From Escherichia coli (lineage in GTDB: Bacteria; Pseudomonadota; Gammaproteobacteria; Enterobacterales; Enterobacteriaceae), in NCBI RefSeq assembly GCF_041248615.1, contig NZ_CP158426.1: a DNA stretch of 64,000 bases; one strand, given 5' to 3'. The translations under genes were made by a program, and so were the position numbers. Numbering within the stretch: the first letter of the stretch is position 1; each line of letters starts with the position of its first letter. Positions 10,829-19,587 of the stretch are shown here, piece by piece. The notes beneath the pieces are model-generated. The model did no database searches. It saw only the letters and a program-made list of their open reading frames with translations, and was not told the DNA's origin.

Positions 10829-11992
10829 TTACTTTTGATTGTCGATTCTGGTGAGAGCAACCAGCAATGCCAGCGTATAACACACCGTAATTGCCAGACT
10901 CATTTTTAACAGTGTTTCTCCGCCAATTCCCGACAATGGCGCGGCTATACCGCCGAAGACAAACATGCTCATCCCCATCAACGCAGACGCCGTTCCAGAT
11001 TCCTGCGTCCCTACTGCACTCATAGCCTCTGCCCCGCCAACAGTGCCGATGCCGCTACAAAATGCGATGGTGAAAAATAATGCCACCAGTGCCGGAATGG
11101 GCAATTGTATCCATGCGCATAAGACCGTGAGCAATGCACACAAAATTGCCGCTATCAGGCCACCTCGCAACAATGTCATCGCGTTAATCCGTCGCGCCAG
11201 GCGCGAGAAGATCCATGAAGCAATGATAAGTCCGATGCCGTTAAGGCCAAACACCAGGCTAAATTGCATTGGACTAAAGCCAAATTCCTTCTGCAACACG
11301 AACGACGAAGAGCCGATATATGCAAACAAACCGGCCAGCATAAAACTTTGAATCAGGCAAAAGCGCATAAAACGGCGGTTCTGCACCACGCTTCGTCCGG
11401 TTAATAGCAATGATGAGCCCCTTTTATTTTCTGGCAAGGTCTCATTAATAAATAACAGGCAGCCCAGCAACAGTACGGTGCTAATTTCAGCCATTACCCA
11501 GAATAAAGTGCGCCAGTCAAAAGTGCTGACAATGTACCCGCCCAGCACTGGCGACAACACCGGTGCCAGGCCATTCACCGTCATTAACAGCGCAAAAAAC
11601 TGGGTCAACGTTACTCCCTGATATTTGTCACGAGCAATAGAACGAGAGAGCACCGAACCACCCGCCCCCGCGATCCCTTGAATAAAACGCCAGACCACCA
11701 GCCAGTAAATATTGTTCGTTGTCGCGCACAAAATGGAAGAAACAATAAACAATAGCAACGACAAGATTAACGGACGTTTACGCCCTATTTTGTCGCTCAG
11801 AGGGCCAAATAACAGTTGTCCGACGCCAAGACCGATCAGCGATGCGGTCAGGGTTAATTGCGTTATGGTCGTGGTTGCCGCCAGTTGCTCAGACATCTCC
11901 GGCAAAGCCGGCAAATAAAGATCGGTACACATCGGGCCGATACCGGCTAAAAGACCAAGAATCAATGCCCATGAAAGAGAGACTCTAGCCAT
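10829..11992 (-). CDS. MFS drug efflux transporter (Bcr/CflA-like, DHA1 family)
   Basis: 387-aa ORF with about 12 predicted TM helices and MFS-type motifs (GPLSDKIGRKRP); last gene of the accessory efflux cluster. Confidence 0.75.
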   Translation of the reverse strand: MARVSLSWALILGLLAGIGPMCTDLYLPALPEMSEQLAATTTITQLTLTASLIGLGVGQLLFGPLSDKIGRKRPLILSLLLFIVSSILCATTNNIYWLVVWRFIQGIAGAGGSVLSRSIARDKYQGVTLTQFFALLMTVNGLAPVLSPVLGGYIVSTFDWRTLFWVMAEISTVLLLGCLLFINETLPENKRGSSLLLTGRSVVQNRRFMRFCLIQSFMLAGLFAYIGSSSFVLQKEFGFSPMQFSLVFGLNGIGLIIASWIFSRLARRINAMTLLRGGLIAAILCALLTVLCAWIQLPIPALVALFFTIAFCSGIGTVGGAEAMSAVGTQESGTASALMGMSMFVFGGIAAPLSGIGGETLLKMSLAITVCYTLALLVALTRIDNQK

Positions 11993-12000
11993 ATTATTCC

Positions 12001-13374
12001 TTACTTGAGTGATGACATGCCGCCGCCCAGCGACTGCCAGAGCGTGATTCGGTTTGTAAAATCAGTCAGTTGCAGTGCCAGCAGCTCCTGCTGTGCGCTC
12101 CACAAGCTGCGCTGCGCCGTCAACACGGTCAGGTAATCACCAACACCCGCCTGATAGCGACGCAAGCCAACATCGACCGTTTGTTGCTCAGCTTTAACAT
12201 ACTGGCGCTGTGCATCCAGTTGCTCTTCAAGCGTGGTCCGCCGCGCCAGTGCGTTAGCGACATCTTTAAATGCGCTCTGAACGGTTTTTTCATAGGTGGC
12301 AATGAGTCCACGCTTTTGTGCTTCTGCGTAACGAAGCTGCGCCAAATTACTTCCGCCAGTGAACAGCGGTAATGTGACCGATGGCGTAAATGACCAGATC
12401 TGCATTCCGTAGCTGAACAACGACGACAATGCGTCACTGCCAACACCAGCGCTGGCAGTCAGCGAAATCGTCGGAAAAAAGTTAGCCCGCGCCGCGCCAA
12501 TATCGGCATTGGCGCTCTTCAAATTATGTTCCGCTTCCTGGATATCCGGGCGACGCAGCAGAACGTCAGATGACACTCCCGCAGGAACCAGACTTATCAT
12601 CTGTTCCGGCAGGCTTTCCAGTGTTCCCGGTAGCAAATTTTCCTCAAGCGTTGTACCTGCCAGTAAGTTCAGCGCATTTTTATCCTGCATCACTTGTGTC
12701 TGATAGCTGGCAACGCTGGCGCGCGCTTGCTGATAAACACTCATCGCCTCACTGACATCTGTCGCTGCCGCCGTGCCAACCTGTTGCTGGCGCTGGATAA
12801 TTTTCAATGAGTTTTCTGCACTGGCCATCGTTTCTTTTGCCAGGGCCAGGTTGCTGTTATCAGCCGCCAGTGTCAGCCAGGCGGTGCTGATTTCAGCAAT
12901 CAGCGTTAAACGAGTGTTCTGGGCTGTAAATTCACTGGCAAGCCAGGTTTCCCGCGCCGCCCGAGATAAACTCTGATTACGACCAAACAGATCTAACGTA
13001 TAACTGGACACCGTGCCGTCAGCCTCGGCAGTTGTTCCCGTACCATTCGCCAGCGAACGACTGCGAGTCGAACTTAAGGCCGCATTCACCGTCGGGAATA
13101 ACGACGCATTAGTTTGCCCATAGAGCGCCCGTGCTGAGTCAATATCAGCAATCGCTTTTTGCACATCGCGGTTACTGTTCAGTGCAATGGTTACTACCTG
13201 CTGCAATCGGGGATCGTGGATCACCTGCTGCCAGTCATGGCTGATTGCCTTCCCCTGGCCCTGTGCTCCCGGCAAGGTCGCCGGGATTGGGGATTCAGGC
13301 GTACTGTAGTGGGGATCGAGCGAGACACATCCCGCACTCAACAGCACCAGAAAAATAAGAGAACGACGCAACAT
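12001..13374 (-). CDS. efflux outer-membrane factor lipoprotein (NodT/OprM family)
   Basis: 457-aa ORF with lipoprotein signal (LLSAGC); two-repeat architecture typical of TolC-like OMF proteins. Confidence 0.8.
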   Translation of the reverse strand: MLRRSLIFLVLLSAGCVSLDPHYSTPESPIPATLPGAQGQGKAISHDWQQVIHDPRLQQVVTIALNSNRDVQKAIADIDSARALYGQTNASLFPTVNAALSSTRSRSLANGTGTTAEADGTVSSYTLDLFGRNQSLSRAARETWLASEFTAQNTRLTLIAEISTAWLTLAADNSNLALAKETMASAENSLKIIQRQQQVGTAAATDVSEAMSVYQQARASVASYQTQVMQDKNALNLLAGTTLEENLLPGTLESLPEQMISLVPAGVSSDVLLRRPDIQEAEHNLKSANADIGAARANFFPTISLTASAGVGSDALSSLFSYGMQIWSFTPSVTLPLFTGGSNLAQLRYAEAQKRGLIATYEKTVQSAFKDVANALARRTTLEEQLDAQRQYVKAEQQTVDVGLRRYQAGVGDYLTVLTAQRSLWSAQQELLALQLTDFTNRITLWQSLGGGMSSLK

Positions 13375-13377
13375 AAC

Positions 13378-16300
13378 TTACTCCTGACGGCGCGGTTTAC
13401 CGGCAAACAAACGTTTCACCAGTACAAAAAACAGAGGAACAAAGAAAATAGCCAGCAACGTAGCGGTCAGCGTACCGCCAATAATGCCCGTACCAATGGC
13501 GATGCGGCTGTTCGCCCCTGCGCCGGTTGCTATCGCCAGCGGCATTACCCCCGCAATAAACGCCAGCGAGGTCATGATGATTGGGCGTAAACGAGTCTGC
13601 GCCGCGCGTAATGCCGCACGACTCAAGGAATAGCCCTCTGCAACCGCCGCTTCAGCAAATTCCACAATCAGAATGGCGTTTTTCGACGACAAGCCGATAG
13701 TGGTTAATAGCGCCACCTGGAAGTAAACATCGTTGTTTAAATCACGCATCCAGGCCGCCAGCGCCGCGCCAAGAAGCCCCAGAGGGATCACCAGAATGAC
13801 CGAGAACGGGACTGACCAGCTTTCGTACAGTGCTGCAAGGCAGAGGAAAACCACCAGAATAGAAACTGCATACAGACTTAATGCCTGACCGCTGGCCAGT
13901 TTCTCCTGCAATGACAAACCACTCCAGGCCCAGGTTGTTCCCGCAGGAAGACTGTTTGCCAGTTCCTCCATTTTTGTCATTGCATCGCCGGAACTAAAGC
14001 CAGTCGCATTTTCCCCCTGAATTTCATAGGCTGCAGAACCGTTGTAGCGCACCAGTCTTTCCGGTCCATACAGCCAGCGGGTGGTCGCAAAAGCAGAGAA
14101 TGGTGTCATGGCGTTATCGCTACCGCGCACAAACCATTTACCTAAGTCTGACGGCGCGGAACGAAATTCACTGTCGCCCTGAATGTAGACTTTTTTCACA
14201 CGACCACGGTCAATAAAGTCATTCACATAAGTACCGCCCCACGCACTGGACAGGGTGTCGGTGACATCATTCAAACTCAACCCTAATGACACCGCTTTAT
14301 TACTATCAATATCTACCTGCAATTGCGGCATTTGTGGCAAATCATTAGCACGCACAGAATGTAACTCCGGACTTTGATTCGCTTTTTCTATCAACTGATT
14401 ACGCATTTGCAGTAGTGTTTCGCGATCGGTTCCACCGTTAGCTAACAATTCAAACGTAAAACCATTGCTTTGCCCCAGCCCATCAACGGCTGGCGGCGTC
14501 ATCGCAAATACCGTGGCATCACGAATTGTGCCCAGCTCTTTGGTTGCCCGTAGGGCGATAGCCTGGGCGGTGTTTTCTGCCCCTTTACGTTGAGACCAGT
14601 TTTTCAACGAAACAAACGCCATCCCGGTGTTCTGTCCGCTGCCGCTAAAACTGAAACCATCAACGGTAAAAATAACATCGGTATTTGCTTTCTCATTAAT
14701 CAGGAACCAGTCAACAATCTGGCGATTCACTTCTGCTGTACGGGCAGCGGTCGCCCCGGCCGGCAGCGTGTACTGCACCATGATTTCGCCCTGGTCTTCA
14801 GTGGGTAAGAAACTGCCCGGCAGTTTCCACATCATCAGGGCCATTCCACCACCCAGTACGACATAAAGCCCCATCGTTCGAGCAGCACGGCGCAGGACAT
14901 AAATTACGCCTCGCTGATATTTATCTTCAGTACGGCGGTAAAAGCGGTTAAATGCGCCGAAAAAGCCTTTTTTATGTGGCGGAACATGCTGGAGGACGGA
15001 ACCGCACAGGGCGGGAGTCAAGGTCAATGCCACTACCACGGAAAGCAGCATTGCGGAGATAATGGTTATCGAAAACTGACGATAAATTACCCCCGTAGAT
15101 CCCCCAAAGAAGGCCATAGGCAGGAATACGGCTGATAACACCAGCGCAATGGCAACCAGTGCGCCAGAAATCTCGCCCATTGATTTTTCCGTGGCTTCAC
15201 GCGCGGGCAACCCTTCGTCACGCATAATGCGTTCGACGTTCTCCACCACCACAATGGCATCGTCCACCAGCAAGCCGATCGCCAGGACCATTGCAAACAA
15301 CGTCAGGGTATTAATCGAATAGCCAAACAACGCAAGAACGCCGAATGTGCCCAGCAAAACGACGGGGACAGCTAACGCCGGAATCAGTGTGGCACGCAGG
15401 TTTTGCAGGAATAAATACATCACGCAAACCACCAATACGATGGCTTCAAACAGCGTCTGAATTACGTCCTCTACAGAGATTTTAATAAATTCAGTGCTGT
15501 CTTTCGGGTATGCGATGTCGTATCCCTGCGGCATGTTCCGCTGGAATTCGGCAATCTTATCCTTGACCAGCGTCGCCGTATTCAGCGCATTCGCACCGGG
15601 CGAAAGCATTACAGCAACCCCGGCAGACGGGTGACCGTTAAGTTTGCCGATAGCGGTATAATCTTCACTGCCCATCTCAACGCGAGCCACATCTTTTATA
15701 CGAACAACTGCGCCGTCTGACTGGCTTTTCACGATAATATTTTTGAACTGATCCACCGTCTGCAAGCGAGACTGCGCACGTACCGTTGCGGTCAGTTGCT
15801 GAGTATTCGGTGAAGGCAATGCCCCTATTTTCCCGGCAGTAACCTGCACGTTTTGCGCTTCAATAGCACTTTGCACGTCTGAAGGCATTAGCGAGTAAGA
15901 CGCCAGTTTGGCCGGGTCAAGCCAGATGCGCATAGCGTATTCCGCGCCAAAGACTTGCAGACTCCCCACACCTTCAACACGCGCCAGCGGGTCCTGAACG
16001 TTACTAACCAACCAGTCGGCGATATCCGAACTGGAGGCTTTATCAGTGGTGTCATACACGGCAGCAATCAGCAAAAAGTTGCTTTGTGATTTCTCCACCG
16101 TAACACCCGTTTGCTGCACTTCGCTGGGTAGGCGCGACTCCGCCTGCTGAATTTTATTCTGCACCTGAACCTGTGCAGTATCTGGATCGGTACCTTGTTC
16201 AAAGGTCACATTAATACTGACCGAACCATCAGAGCTACTGGTTGAGCTGAAATAGAGTAAATTATCAAGCCCAGTGAGTTGTTGCTCGATAACCTGAGTC

Positions 16301-16485
16301 ACGCTGTTCTCCAGCGTTTCGGCAGAAGCACCAGTATAAGTGGCTGAAATTTTAATGGTCGGCGGTGCAACGTCAGGATATTGCGCGACGGGTAATGTGC
16401 GAATAGCCAGAATCCCCGCCAACATAATCAAAATGGCGATAACCCAGGCAAAGACCGGGCGGCGAACAAAAAAGCGCGAAAACAT
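13378..16485 (-). CDS. RND multidrug efflux pump, inner-membrane permease (AcrB/MexB-like HAE1)
   Basis: 1035-aa ORF; N-terminus MFSRFFVRRPVFAWVIAILIMLAG is the hallmark AcrB-family start; 12 TM helices and two large periplasmic loops. Confidence 0.9.
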   Translation of the reverse strand: MFSRFFVRRPVFAWVIAILIMLAGILAIRTLPVAQYPDVAPPTIKISATYTGASAETLENSVTQVIEQQLTGLDNLLYFSSTSSSDGSVSINVTFEQGTDPDTAQVQVQNKIQQAESRLPSEVQQTGVTVEKSQSNFLLIAAVYDTTDKASSSDIADWLVSNVQDPLARVEGVGSLQVFGAEYAMRIWLDPAKLASYSLMPSDVQSAIEAQNVQVTAGKIGALPSPNTQQLTATVRAQSRLQTVDQFKNIIVKSQSDGAVVRIKDVARVEMGSEDYTAIGKLNGHPSAGVAVMLSPGANALNTATLVKDKIAEFQRNMPQGYDIAYPKDSTEFIKISVEDVIQTLFEAIVLVVCVMYLFLQNLRATLIPALAVPVVLLGTFGVLALFGYSINTLTLFAMVLAIGLLVDDAIVVVENVERIMRDEGLPAREATEKSMGEISGALVAIALVLSAVFLPMAFFGGSTGVIYRQFSITIISAMLLSVVVALTLTPALCGSVLQHVPPHKKGFFGAFNRFYRRTEDKYQRGVIYVLRRAARTMGLYVVLGGGMALMMWKLPGSFLPTEDQGEIMVQYTLPAGATAARTAEVNRQIVDWFLINEKANTDVIFTVDGFSFSGSGQNTGMAFVSLKNWSQRKGAENTAQAIALRATKELGTIRDATVFAMTPPAVDGLGQSNGFTFELLANGGTDRETLLQMRNQLIEKANQSPELHSVRANDLPQMPQLQVDIDSNKAVSLGLSLNDVTDTLSSAWGGTYVNDFIDRGRVKKVYIQGDSEFRSAPSDLGKWFVRGSDNAMTPFSAFATTRWLYGPERLVRYNGSAAYEIQGENATGFSSGDAMTKMEELANSLPAGTTWAWSGLSLQEKLASGQALSLYAVSILVVFLCLAALYESWSVPFSVILVIPLGLLGAALAAWMRDLNNDVYFQVALLTTIGLSSKNAILIVEFAEAAVAEGYSLSRAALRAAQTRLRPIIMTSLAFIAGVMPLAIATGAGANSRIAIGTGIIGGTLTATLLAIFFVPLFFVLVKRLFAGKPRRQE

Positions 16486-17606
16486 CAGGCGTTGCCTCCA
16501 TTAGCCTGAACTTCAACAGCCTTGACGGTCTGCCCTGAAGTGACTTTGGCAGAACCTTCAACAATCAGTCGGTCGCCGTTGTGCAGGCCGTTCAGCACCA
16601 GCCATTTATCACCATACGTTTCTCCCGTTTCGAGCGTTCGCTGCTCTACTTTATTGTCTTTATTCACCACCAGCGCAGTTGCATTGCCTTTAGCATCGCG
16701 CGTGACGCCCTGTTGCGGCGCGAGAATAGCGTCTTCCATCACGCCTTCATCGACACGAGCGCGAACAAACATTCCCGGTAATAACTGCTGTTGTGGATTG
16801 GGGAAAATCGCCCGTAATGTCACCGAACCGGTAGACTCATCTACAGCGACTTCGGTGAGTTCCAGACGCCCTTTTTCGCTGTAGGTTGTGCCATCTTCCA
16901 GAATAAGTGAGACGCTCATGGTGTCACTGTTGGTCGCCAGTGACTGTTTACGCAGACGTAATAAATCGACACTGGAGCGAGTGAGGTCGACATACATTGT
17001 ATCCAGACCACGAATAGTCGTTAACGCTGTATCTTGCGACGCGGTCACCAGTGCGCCAGGGGTTACCGACGAAATGCCAATGCGCCCTGAAATCGGTGCG
17101 GTTACCGTGGTCCAGTCAAGATTAATGCGCGCAGTTTCCAGCGCGGCTTTTTTCGCCTCTACACTGGCTTTATCTTGTGCACAGGTAGACTGAGCATCAT
17201 CAGCATCCTGTTGTGAAACACCGTTCTCTTTCACCAGTCGGGCATAACGCTGCGCTTTCTGGCAATCGGCTTTTACCAGTGCCTGTGCTTGTTGTAATGC
17301 TGCCCGAGCTTCATTCCATGCAGCCTGATAACTGGCCGCATCAATCTGGTAGAGAGGCTGTCCAGCCTTGACCAGATCACCTTCCTTAAATAAGCGTTTC
17401 TGGATAATTCCCCCAACCTGCGGACGTACTTCAGCACTGAGCGCAGCACTGGTGCGTCCGGTTAATTCACTGACTACCGAAACAGGTTGAGATTTGAGCG
17501 TAACAACGCCGACTTCTGTTTCTGACGGGGATGAATTGTTACTTTGCGTATTATCACAACCCGATAAGAGCAGCATTGCCACTACAGATGTTGCTATATA
17601 CTTCAT
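16485..17606 (-). CDS. RND efflux membrane fusion protein (AcrA/MexA-like periplasmic adaptor)
   Basis: ORF with lipoprotein signal MKYIATSVVAMLLLSGC; start chosen at the ATG preceded by GGAG (ORF track extends to 17639); 1-nt overlap with the RND gene. Confidence 0.8.
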   Translation of the reverse strand: MKYIATSVVAMLLLSGCDNTQSNNSSPSETEVGVVTLKSQPVSVVSELTGRTSAALSAEVRPQVGGIIQKRLFKEGDLVKAGQPLYQIDAASYQAAWNEARAALQQAQALVKADCQKAQRYARLVKENGVSQQDADDAQSTCAQDKASVEAKKAALETARINLDWTTVTAPISGRIGISSVTPGALVTASQDTALTTIRGLDTMYVDLTRSSVDLLRLRKQSLATNSDTMSVSLILEDGTTYSEKGRLELTEVAVDESTGSVTLRAIFPNPQQQLLPGMFVRARVDEGVMEDAILAPQQGVTRDAKGNATALVVNKDNKVEQRTLETGETYGDKWLVLNGLHNGDRLIVEGSAKVTSGQTVKAVEVQANGGNA

Positions 17607-17657
17607 TATTTTCTCCAGGGTGAGAAATACCCTCCTCATTGAAATTAATGAGGATAT

Positions 17658-17736
17658 GTCAGGGATATTCAGTTATAACGAACCCGCATCGCGAAATGAA
17701 TTTCGCAATGAAATAAGGGGGATTAATATCCCCCGC
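17658..17736. promoter_or_regulatory. palindrome-rich region between the tetR-like gene and the efflux operon (candidate operator plus terminator hairpin)
   Basis: inverted repeats cctcatt-N6-aatgagg and gcgaaat-ga-atttcgc, followed by the hairpin gggggattaatatccccc. Confidence 0.4.
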
Positions 17737-17754
17737 TATTGGTTAATTCTGTTC

Positions 17755-18321
17755 TTATTTATTTATCAACATACTAACAATATCCTGATATATTTCCTGC
17801 AGATGTTGTGGATCGCTTTTTTGCGGTGTTAAACGACGATAAACCGTACCTTCCATCATGGTAGCAAACACTTCAACGCAGCAACGAATGTGCTCGTCGC
17901 TAAGATGGGGATGCATTCTTTTCATATGTGCACAACCGTTAGCGAACATTCTGGCGTCAGCTTCTTCAAGCATTGCCATAACCCGCGGGTTGCGTGTGGC
18001 TTCTGCAGCCACTTCCAGCATCAGCGCGTCGTCGTCCTCATTTAAGGATTTACGCAAGGCAAGGACTTCCGGGAAGTGATCGGTACGCGCGTCAATGTCC
18101 ATTTGGGCAATACGAAAGTCGATGATACGGCGAACCATCTCTTCAATAATGGCGTCTTTGTTGGCGAAGTAACGATATATCTGACCCACGCTAAGCTGAG
18201 CTTCGCTGGCAATTTGCGACATACTGGCGGCATGAAACCCGCAGCGACGAAAACACCGACGGGCGGCGTTAATGATTTCATCCTGACGCTGTTTGTGGCG
18301 TATCTCCAGCTTGCTGGTCAT
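17755..18321 (-). CDS. TetR/AcrR-family transcriptional regulator
   Basis: TetR-type HTH (AARRCFRRCGFHAASMSQIASEAQLSVGQIYRYFANKD) near the N-terminus when started at MTSKLEIRH (AGGAGA RBS); ORF track extends to 18420. Confidence 0.75.
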   Translation of the reverse strand: MTSKLEIRHKQRQDEIINAARRCFRRCGFHAASMSQIASEAQLSVGQIYRYFANKDAIIEEMVRRIIDFRIAQMDIDARTDHFPEVLALRKSLNEDDDALMLEVAAEATRNPRVMAMLEEADARMFANGCAHMKRMHPHLSDEHIRCCVEVFATMMEGTVYRRLTPQKSDPQHLQEIYQDIVSMLINK

Positions 18322-18346
18322 TTCTGTCTCCTGGCCTATCACTTGG

Positions 18347-18364
18347 TGAGAATGATCGTTCTCA
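18347..18364. promoter_or_regulatory. 18-bp near-perfect palindrome upstream of the tetR-like start (candidate autoregulatory operator)
   Basis: TGAGAATGATCGTTCTCA, symmetric with 2 central mismatches, 26 bp upstream of the proposed start codon. Confidence 0.4.
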
Positions 18365-18798
18365 TTTTTGCTGATTATACGTTTCTCCAAAGTAATGGAA
18401 AGTATTTTTATCTTATTCATGGTGCATATTCTGATAATGAAGAGATTGTGGAGATTATGTGAAGATAGTTGACAATATTAAGTTGGGGTCAATTCATCAG
18501 AAAGGCTGCTACTTGTTGTCGCCAGTTCTGTTTTCATCATCAAACTTATCGGAGCTAATACGAATAGTTTCAGAGTCAGATTCTATAAGATATTCCCCCA
18601 ACCTACCCCTTGCAGGCGTCAAGAGTAGATAACGCAAAATGCTCTGTACCGCAGCTTCTCTCCGGTACAGAAAGCGCAACTATAGCCACCCACAGCCAGG
18701 TTGATTATAATAACCGTTTATCTGTTCGTACTGTTTACTAAAACGACGAATCGCCTGATTTTCAGGCACAACAAGCATCAACAATAAGGATTAAAGCT

Positions 18799-19587
18799 AT
18801 GGGTTTTCTTTCCGGTAAGCGCATTCTGGTAACCGGTGTTGCCAGCAAACTGTCCATCGCCTACGGTATCGCTCAGGCGATGCACCGCGAAGGAGCTGAA
18901 CTGGCATTCACCTACCAGAACGACAAACTGAAAGGCCGCGTAGAAGAATTTGCAGCTCAATTGGGTTCTGACATCGTTCTGCAGTGCGATGTTGCCGAAG
19001 ATGCCAGCATCGACACCATGTTCGCTGAACTGGCGAAAGTTTGGCCGAAATTTGACGGTTTCGTACACTCTATTGGTTTTGCACCTGGCGATCAGCTGGA
19101 TGGTGACTATGTTAACGCCGTTACCCGTGAAGGCTTCAAAATTGCTCACGACATCAGCTCCTACAGCTTCGTTGCAATGGCAAAAGCTTGCCGCTCCATG
19201 CTGAATCCGGGTTCTGCCCTGCTGACCCTTTCCTACCTTGGCGCTGAGCGCGCTATCCCGAACTACAACGTTATGGGTCTGGCAAAAGCGTCTCTGGAAG
19301 CAAACGTGCGCTATATGGCGAACGCGATGGGTCCGGAAGGTGTGCGTGTTAACGCCATCTCTGCGGGTCCGATCCGTACTCTGGCGGCTTCCGGTATCAA
19401 AGACTTCCGCAAAATGCTGGCTCATTGCGAAGCCGTTACCCCGATTCGCCGTACCGTTACCATTGAAGATGTGGGTAACTCTGCGGCATTCCTGTGCTCC
19501 GATCTCTCTGCCGGTATCTCCGGTGAAGTGGTCCACGTTGACGGCGGTTTCAGCATCGCTGCAATGAACGAACTCGAACTGAAATAA
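18799..19587 (+). CDS. fabI: enoyl-ACP reductase (NADH) FabI
   Basis: 262-aa ORF matching FabI, including the [16 protein letters not shown] start. Confidence 0.95.

Follow-up and report, generated by a model that had tools for sequence, protein, structure and literature searches.

EefR and related repressor-operator systems

The TetR/tetO, AcrR/acrAB, and QacR/IR1 systems each pair a regulator bearing a TetR_N domain with an adjacent efflux function, and in each the regulator controls its own expression via an inverted repeat that adjoins the regulator's promoter or overlaps it. The locus studied here, which lies in a 64-kb stretch of Escherichia coli DNA (henceforth the window), resembles them in these respects but differs from acrR/acrAB and tetR/tetA in orientation: whereas the regulator is divergently transcribed in those systems, eefR points the same way as the pump genes and heads the transcript that it represses, so that one operator and one promoter serve both the regulator and the pump.

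The closest described counterpart is the EefR operator of E. coli ATCC 35218, which has already been described and experimentally validated (Shen et al., Virulence 2025, PMC12482432); hence, the palindrome itself is not new. In that strain the palindrome TGAGAACGATCATTCTCA lies upstream of eefR, between fabI and eefR, and the gene encodes a 188-aa regulator and belongs to a five-gene operon. Purified EefR specifically shifted a 129-bp probe in electrophoretic mobility shift assays (EMSAs) with competitor DNA; the shift was lost with a probe from which the palindrome had been deleted, and in the point mutants M1 to M6 even a single-base change in one half-site abolished it (PMC12482432). A PeefR-gfp fusion was repressed by EefR but not by proteins mutated at Val45 or Arg50, two residues of helix alpha3 whose mutation leads to loss of repression (PMC12482432). 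The same study showed by RT-PCR products across the gene junctions that the five eef genes are co-transcribed and by qRT-PCR that deletion of eefR raises eefA-D mRNA levels 27- to 83-fold. When the regions upstream of E. coli genes were scanned with MAST for TGAGAANNNNNNTTCTCA, no further site emerged (PMC12482432).

A homologous RND pump, also cryptic under laboratory conditions, is encoded by eefABC of Klebsiella (Enterobacter) aerogenes, with identities of 78% for EefA, 87% for EefB, and 75% for EefC (PMC12482432). The means of silencing differs, however, in that the E. coli pump is held down via a TetR-type operator, while the K. aerogenes genes, according to the work of Masi et al. (2005) as cited in PMC12817139, are without eefR and are silenced by H-NS. 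Thus, EefR is not the sole means by which such pumps are silenced, and H-NS may make an added contribution in E. coli, given the AT-rich region (39.6% G+C) upstream of the operon. Among solved structures, the closest relative of EefR by sequence is UidR (6ayi; E = 1.4e-12), with an identity of 21%, and the TGAGAA half-site resembles that of no characterized TetR-family regulator (both PMC12482432).

Through its operator, EefR silences a seventh RND multidrug pump. About 38% of complete E. coli genomes contain the operon (by BLAST, the eef segment is present in 2,034 to 2,039 of 5,426, O157:H7 included), and it occurs in infection-associated phylogroups (PMC12817139). Single mutations in eefR or in the operator can turn on multidrug resistance once AcrB is lost or inhibited (PMC12482432).

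The eefRABCD locus in the window

The window contains a co-directional eefR-eefA-eefB-eefC-eefD operon on the minus strand, with eefR as its first gene, so that a single operator controls the pump genes too. The regulator, for which we use the name EefR as in PMC12482432 and PMC12817139, is encoded at 17755 to 18321. Its open reading frame extends from 17755 to 18420, and an internal ATG at 18321 gives the 188-aa protein; the RefSeq start in the syntenic gene, annotated as a TetR/AcrR-family regulator, is identical. This ATG is preceded, at a distance of 5 nt, by a Shine-Dalgarno sequence, AGGAGA, at 18327 to 18332. Residues 16 to 62 of the protein match the TetR_N helix-turn-helix (Pfam code PF00440, E = 1.2e-15), and the whole shares 99% identity with a cluster of 1,296 protein sequences.

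The remaining genes, all on the minus strand, encode the parts of an efflux system: eefA (16485 to 17606), an RND periplasmic adaptor lipoprotein with the lipobox-containing signal peptide MKYIATSVVAMLLLSGC; eefB (13378 to 16485), a 1035-aa RND permease recognized by both Pfam (ACR_tran, 1243 bits) and NCBIfam; eefC (12001 to 13374), a 457-aa outer-membrane factor whose syntenic RefSeq gene is annotated "efflux transporter outer membrane subunit"; and eefD (10829 to 11992), a 387-aa MFS exporter whose syntenic RefSeq gene is a multidrug efflux MFS transporter. In E. coli O157:H7 PNUSAE145590 (L001, 4784 to 7886), eefB is annotated as a frameshifted pseudogene, while in the window it is an intact 1035-aa frame.

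The five genes sit between sapF and fabI, where K-12-type strains have ycjD, with fabI, yciW, and rnb following beyond eefR on the opposite strand. The layout agrees with the account that Pugh et al. (PMC12817139) give of the eefRABCD accessory operon, and by gene order, synteny, and sapF-fabI insertion site the locus passes as this operon of E. coli phylogroups B2/D/E/F/G. Positions 17600 to 18800 are 100% identical to E. coli KE55. In the complete E. coli genomes that lack the eef segment, homology is limited to the 125 bp nearest fabI, starting at about 18676, where the match to K-12-type strains (fabI promoter region) resumes. Just inside this boundary, on the island side, we observed a 12-bp inverted repeat, TCTGTACCGCAG/CTCCGGTACAGA, at 18643 to 18671, which could be a remnant terminator or a junction feature.

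The eefR-fabI intergenic region spans 477 bp (18322 to 18798) and is low in G+C (39.6%, against 49.9% for the window). The preliminary description had pictured a regulator divergent from fabI across a long intergenic region. The length of the region and the opposite strand of fabI hold good, while the pump genes, which are the target of the regulator, are co-directional with it rather than divergent. The fabI promoter lies about 320 bp from the operator, within DNA common to K-12, and we found no published evidence for control of fabI by EefR, PMC12482432 mentioning fabI only as a positional landmark.

The operator and its promoter

Direct reading of positions 17700 to 19300 places TGAGAATGATCGTTCTCA on the plus strand at exactly 18347 to 18364. 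Its reverse complement, in the sense of eefR on the minus strand, is TGAGAACGATCATTCTCA, which is letter for letter the EefR operator of Shen et al.; we found no difference from ATCC 35218 in the site itself, only in the strain. The operator is an 18-bp inverted repeat with TGAGAA half-sites around a GATC center. All but one of its nine base pairs are self-complementary, the exception being positions 7 and 12 (T and G), and a gap of 25 nt separates it from the eefR ATG (18321 to 18319). The coordinates and letters first given for this palindrome, and its distance from the regulator start (put at about 26 bp), are accordingly sound. The near-symmetry that had also been claimed is real, but the "two central mismatches" attributed to it are one and the same pair, positions 7 and 12, which flank a perfectly symmetric GATC and leave the exact center without a mismatch. 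The spacer between the half-sites is 6 nt in the window, in agreement with the Results section of PMC12482432 (N6) and not with its Discussion, where the motif is written TGAGAAN5TTCTCA.

Symmetry of this degree is not in itself unusual. Nine 18-mers in the window have eight or more complementary pairs out of nine, against 8.2 +/- 3.1 expected from Markov-1 simulations, i.e., palindromes of this kind are not enriched across the 64 kb, and the probability of at least one in a 477-bp stretch is about 0.06. The specific motif TGAGAA-N6-TTCTCA has just one exact match in the window, with a single further site at one mismatch (0.12 expected). The significance of the operator thus derives from its conservation, its position, and the published experiments, and not from symmetry as such.

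Upstream of the operator, a promoter scan with 10 of 12 consensus matches independently selected a predicted -35 element, TTTCCA (18396 to 18401), a 16-nt spacer, and a predicted -10 element, TATAAT (18374 to 18379), all on the minus strand; the -10 element ends 9 nt before the operator. A MAFFT alignment of 34 promoter regions recovered three conserved blocks amid otherwise diverged DNA, namely, an A-tract followed by the -35 element (TTTCCA or TTTTCA), the -10 block CGTATAAT, which is conserved across genera, and the operator, which is the best conserved of the three.

The distance between the -10 element and the operator takes two forms. In Escherichia, Raoultella, and Kluyvera, the operator begins 9 nt past the -10, whereas in Enterobacter and Leclercia (L020-L027, L067, L077) an 11-nt stretch between the two, relative to 18365 to 18379 of the window, is missing, and the TGAGAA of the operator overlaps the last T of TATAAT by one base. 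The two arrangements differ by about 10 nt, or about one helical turn, which indicates that the geometry of the operator is not strictly fixed. On the evidence of the predicted elements, the bound repressor would in both arrangements sit on or beside the predicted transcription start.

Taking these findings together, we regard it as nearly certain that the palindrome is the operator of EefR, the TetR-family repressor encoded first in the five-gene eefRABCD efflux operon. To the published data the present analysis adds the identity of the site with the validated one, its position relative to a conserved promoter, and its deep conservation across genera, and we found no evidence that contradicts this explanation. 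The TetR-family autoregulatory operator suggested in the preliminary description is thereby borne out, the adjacent TetR_N gene being that of EefR, which binds the site and represses its own promoter (PMC12482432). The checks proposed with that suggestion have their answers in the same study: binding in EMSA, lost upon deletion or point mutation of the palindrome; repression of the PeefR-gfp reporter, together with the half-site mutant probes; and a MAST scan for further palindromes, which returned no second site.

We propose that EefR, presumably as a dimer, contacts the two TGAGAA half-sites, which lie 6 bp apart. The operator would lie immediately downstream of the -10 element of the single operon promoter, at roughly +3 to +20 if transcription starts about 7 nt past the -10 as predicted. 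Bound EefR would then block RNA polymerase, probably by steric occlusion, and loss of binding would derepress the whole operon; release would be by a presumed small-molecule inducer. In PMC12482432, derepression came from eefR mutations, and a term search of that article for inducer or ligand led only to a domain description and reference titles, with no such experiment.

Conservation of the operator and the relatives of EefR

A protein search recovered relatives of EefR with about 55 to 72% identity in Enterobacter, Klebsiella, Raoultella, Kluyvera, Kosakonia, Cronobacter, Erwinia, Pantoea, and other genera. To sample the operator, one genome per species was scanned, yielding 80 loci whose EefR relatives are 48 to 98% identical, and a motif was scored if nine or more of the 12 half-site positions matched with a spacing of N6 or N10. 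All 80 loci have such a motif no more than about 130 nt ahead of the matched coding region; it had been noted at the outset that a palindrome not conserved in orthologous loci would speak against a regulatory role, and the reverse is observed.

Of the 44 Enterobacteriaceae species loci that were tabulated, whose regulators are only about 62 to 71% identical outside Escherichia, 29 match the half-sites at all 12 positions. Operator positions 2 to 6, 11, and 14 to 17 are invariant, the central GATC (18354 to 18357 in the window) is retained in 41 loci, and the consensus is TGAGAA-Y-GATC-R-TTCTCA. A pyrimidine (C or T) stands at position 7 and a purine (A or G) at position 12, and all four combinations are found (C/A in 24 loci, T/A in 10, C/G in 9, and T/G in 1); another E. 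coli locus (L003) carries the mirror image of the 7/12 pair seen in the window. The apparent imperfection of the window operator is hence a tolerated Y/R position, which allows the motif used to annotate eefR-type regulators to be sharpened to TGAGAAYGATCRTTCTCA. This motif and the conservation of both operator and promoter in many enterobacterial genera are the additions made here to the published account.

The protein side shows a matching constraint. The recognition helix, S44-V45-G46-Q47-I48-Y49-R50, is invariant in an alignment of 29 proteins, which fits the invariant half-sites, and it includes Val45 and Arg50, the residues mutated in the derepressed strains of PMC12482432.

Relatives at 48 to 63% identity that are encoded beside Bcr/EefD-like MFS genes, in Erwinia, Pantoea, Serratia, Brenneria, and Lonsdalea (L045, L048, L068, L069, L074, and L081 among them), have variant operators that read either TGAGAATGAACGTTC(A/G)CA or the 22-bp perfect palindrome TGAGAATGAACGTTCATTCTCA. 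In several of these loci, only a few nucleotides separate the motif from a TATAAT-like -10 element. Eight MFS-linked loci carry TGAGAATGAACGTTCATTCTCA, which corresponds to N10 spacing or, alternatively, to two overlapping N6-type sites, and the other MFS-linked relatives fit N6, three ties excepted. A changed half-site spacing in the distant relatives, which we entertained, is not required, as TGAGAATGAACGTTCATTCTCA can be read as overlapping N6 sites.

Alternative readings of the repeat

The retention of GATC at the center of 41 of the 44 Enterobacteriaceae operators raises the question of whether another factor reads the site in addition to or instead of EefR, be it Dam/SeqA at the GATC or a Fur-like protein. 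For the latter, the string GAGAATGAT in the operator resembles the Fur half-box GATAATGAT, but in most orthologues the sequence is GAGAACGATC, which departs more from the Fur hexamer. The GATC, for its part, is replaced by GAACGTTC or AAGC in the MFS-linked relatives, while the outer half-sites are kept. Deletion of eefR alone, moreover, suffices for the 27- to 83-fold derepression, and methylation did not turn up in a term search of PMC12482432. We therefore give little credence to a second or substitute reader.

A somewhat different proposal is that EefR remains the reader and that the central GATC either makes its binding sensitive to adenine methylation or is shielded from Dam by its occupancy. 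We consider this improbable, but were either version true, it would impose a heritable or replication-coupled ON/OFF heterogeneity on an otherwise cryptic efflux operon. The EMSAs in PMC12482432 used PCR-amplified probes, which were presumably unmethylated, so that methylation would not have been addressed by them.

The predicted transcription start, which places the repeat at the very beginning of the message, also allows for the possibility that it acts as a 5'-terminal hairpin of the eefR mRNA, with a 6-bp stem, and affects stability or translation. The predicted fold is weak (-5.9 kcal/mol, z = -0.33) and no better than chance, 69 of 200 shuffled sequences folding as well; on this ground, we rejected such a role. 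Further, the stem positions in the 44 loci are invariant rather than covarying, and in Enterobacter the repeat overlaps the -10 element and is probably in part untranscribed. All told, we accord this reading hardly any weight.

That the palindrome is a functionless chance repeat in AT-rich intergenic DNA, an idea that the unexceptional number of equally symmetric 18-mers in the window might encourage, has virtually no chance of being correct, as it is refuted by the presence of the motif in all 80 loci, with half-sites invariant amid diverging DNA, together with the specific binding demonstrated by EMSA with deletion and point mutants (PMC12482432).

The eefR-eefA leader

Between eefR and eefA lies an intergenic leader (17607 to 17754, minus strand). 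Here we considered a second operator, TGAGAAATACCCTCCTCA at 17621 to 17638, which has one mismatch to the motif and lies 14 nt upstream of the eefA ATG, and rejected it. The site is not conserved in E. albertii, E. whittamii, another E. coli, and other genera: its TTCTCA-like half is lost even within Escherichia, where TTGTTCA or TTATTCA is found instead, and the other genera have GTTCACCCTGG at this place. The published genome-wide motif scan, with no second site (PMC12482432), also speaks against it. It is probably a lineage-specific, chance match.

Independent minimum-free-energy folds predict three conserved hairpins, H1 to H3, in the leader. They keep their position but not their sequence in Escherichia, Raoultella, Enterobacter, Lelliottia, Kluyvera, and Phytobacter (spacers in L003-L077), and they recur in most of 23 orthologues folded separately, with the most diverged, those of Cedecea (L031) and Kosakonia (L046), fitting less well. 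H1 (17717 to 17734) directly follows the eefR stop codon and has a G+C-rich stem and then a U-rich tail, which gave a terminator-like match in a scan; from these sequence features it looks like an intrinsic terminator. Its stem varies by genus (GGGGGAU/AUCCCCC, GGGAAUU/AAUUCCC, or GGCGGUG/CACCGCC). H2 shows compensatory changes in six of its nine pairs, and H3 (17633 to 17654) adjoins or precedes the eefA ribosome-binding site. An Rfam scan of 17300 to 18900 returned no family at the gathering score; a sub-threshold match to the Bcj14 RNA inside eefA (27 bits versus a gathering score of 59) was taken as chance and set aside. The phenotypes of cloned eefAB and eefABC depend on sequence upstream of eefA (PMC12482432), a dependence that a structured leader or attenuator could explain.
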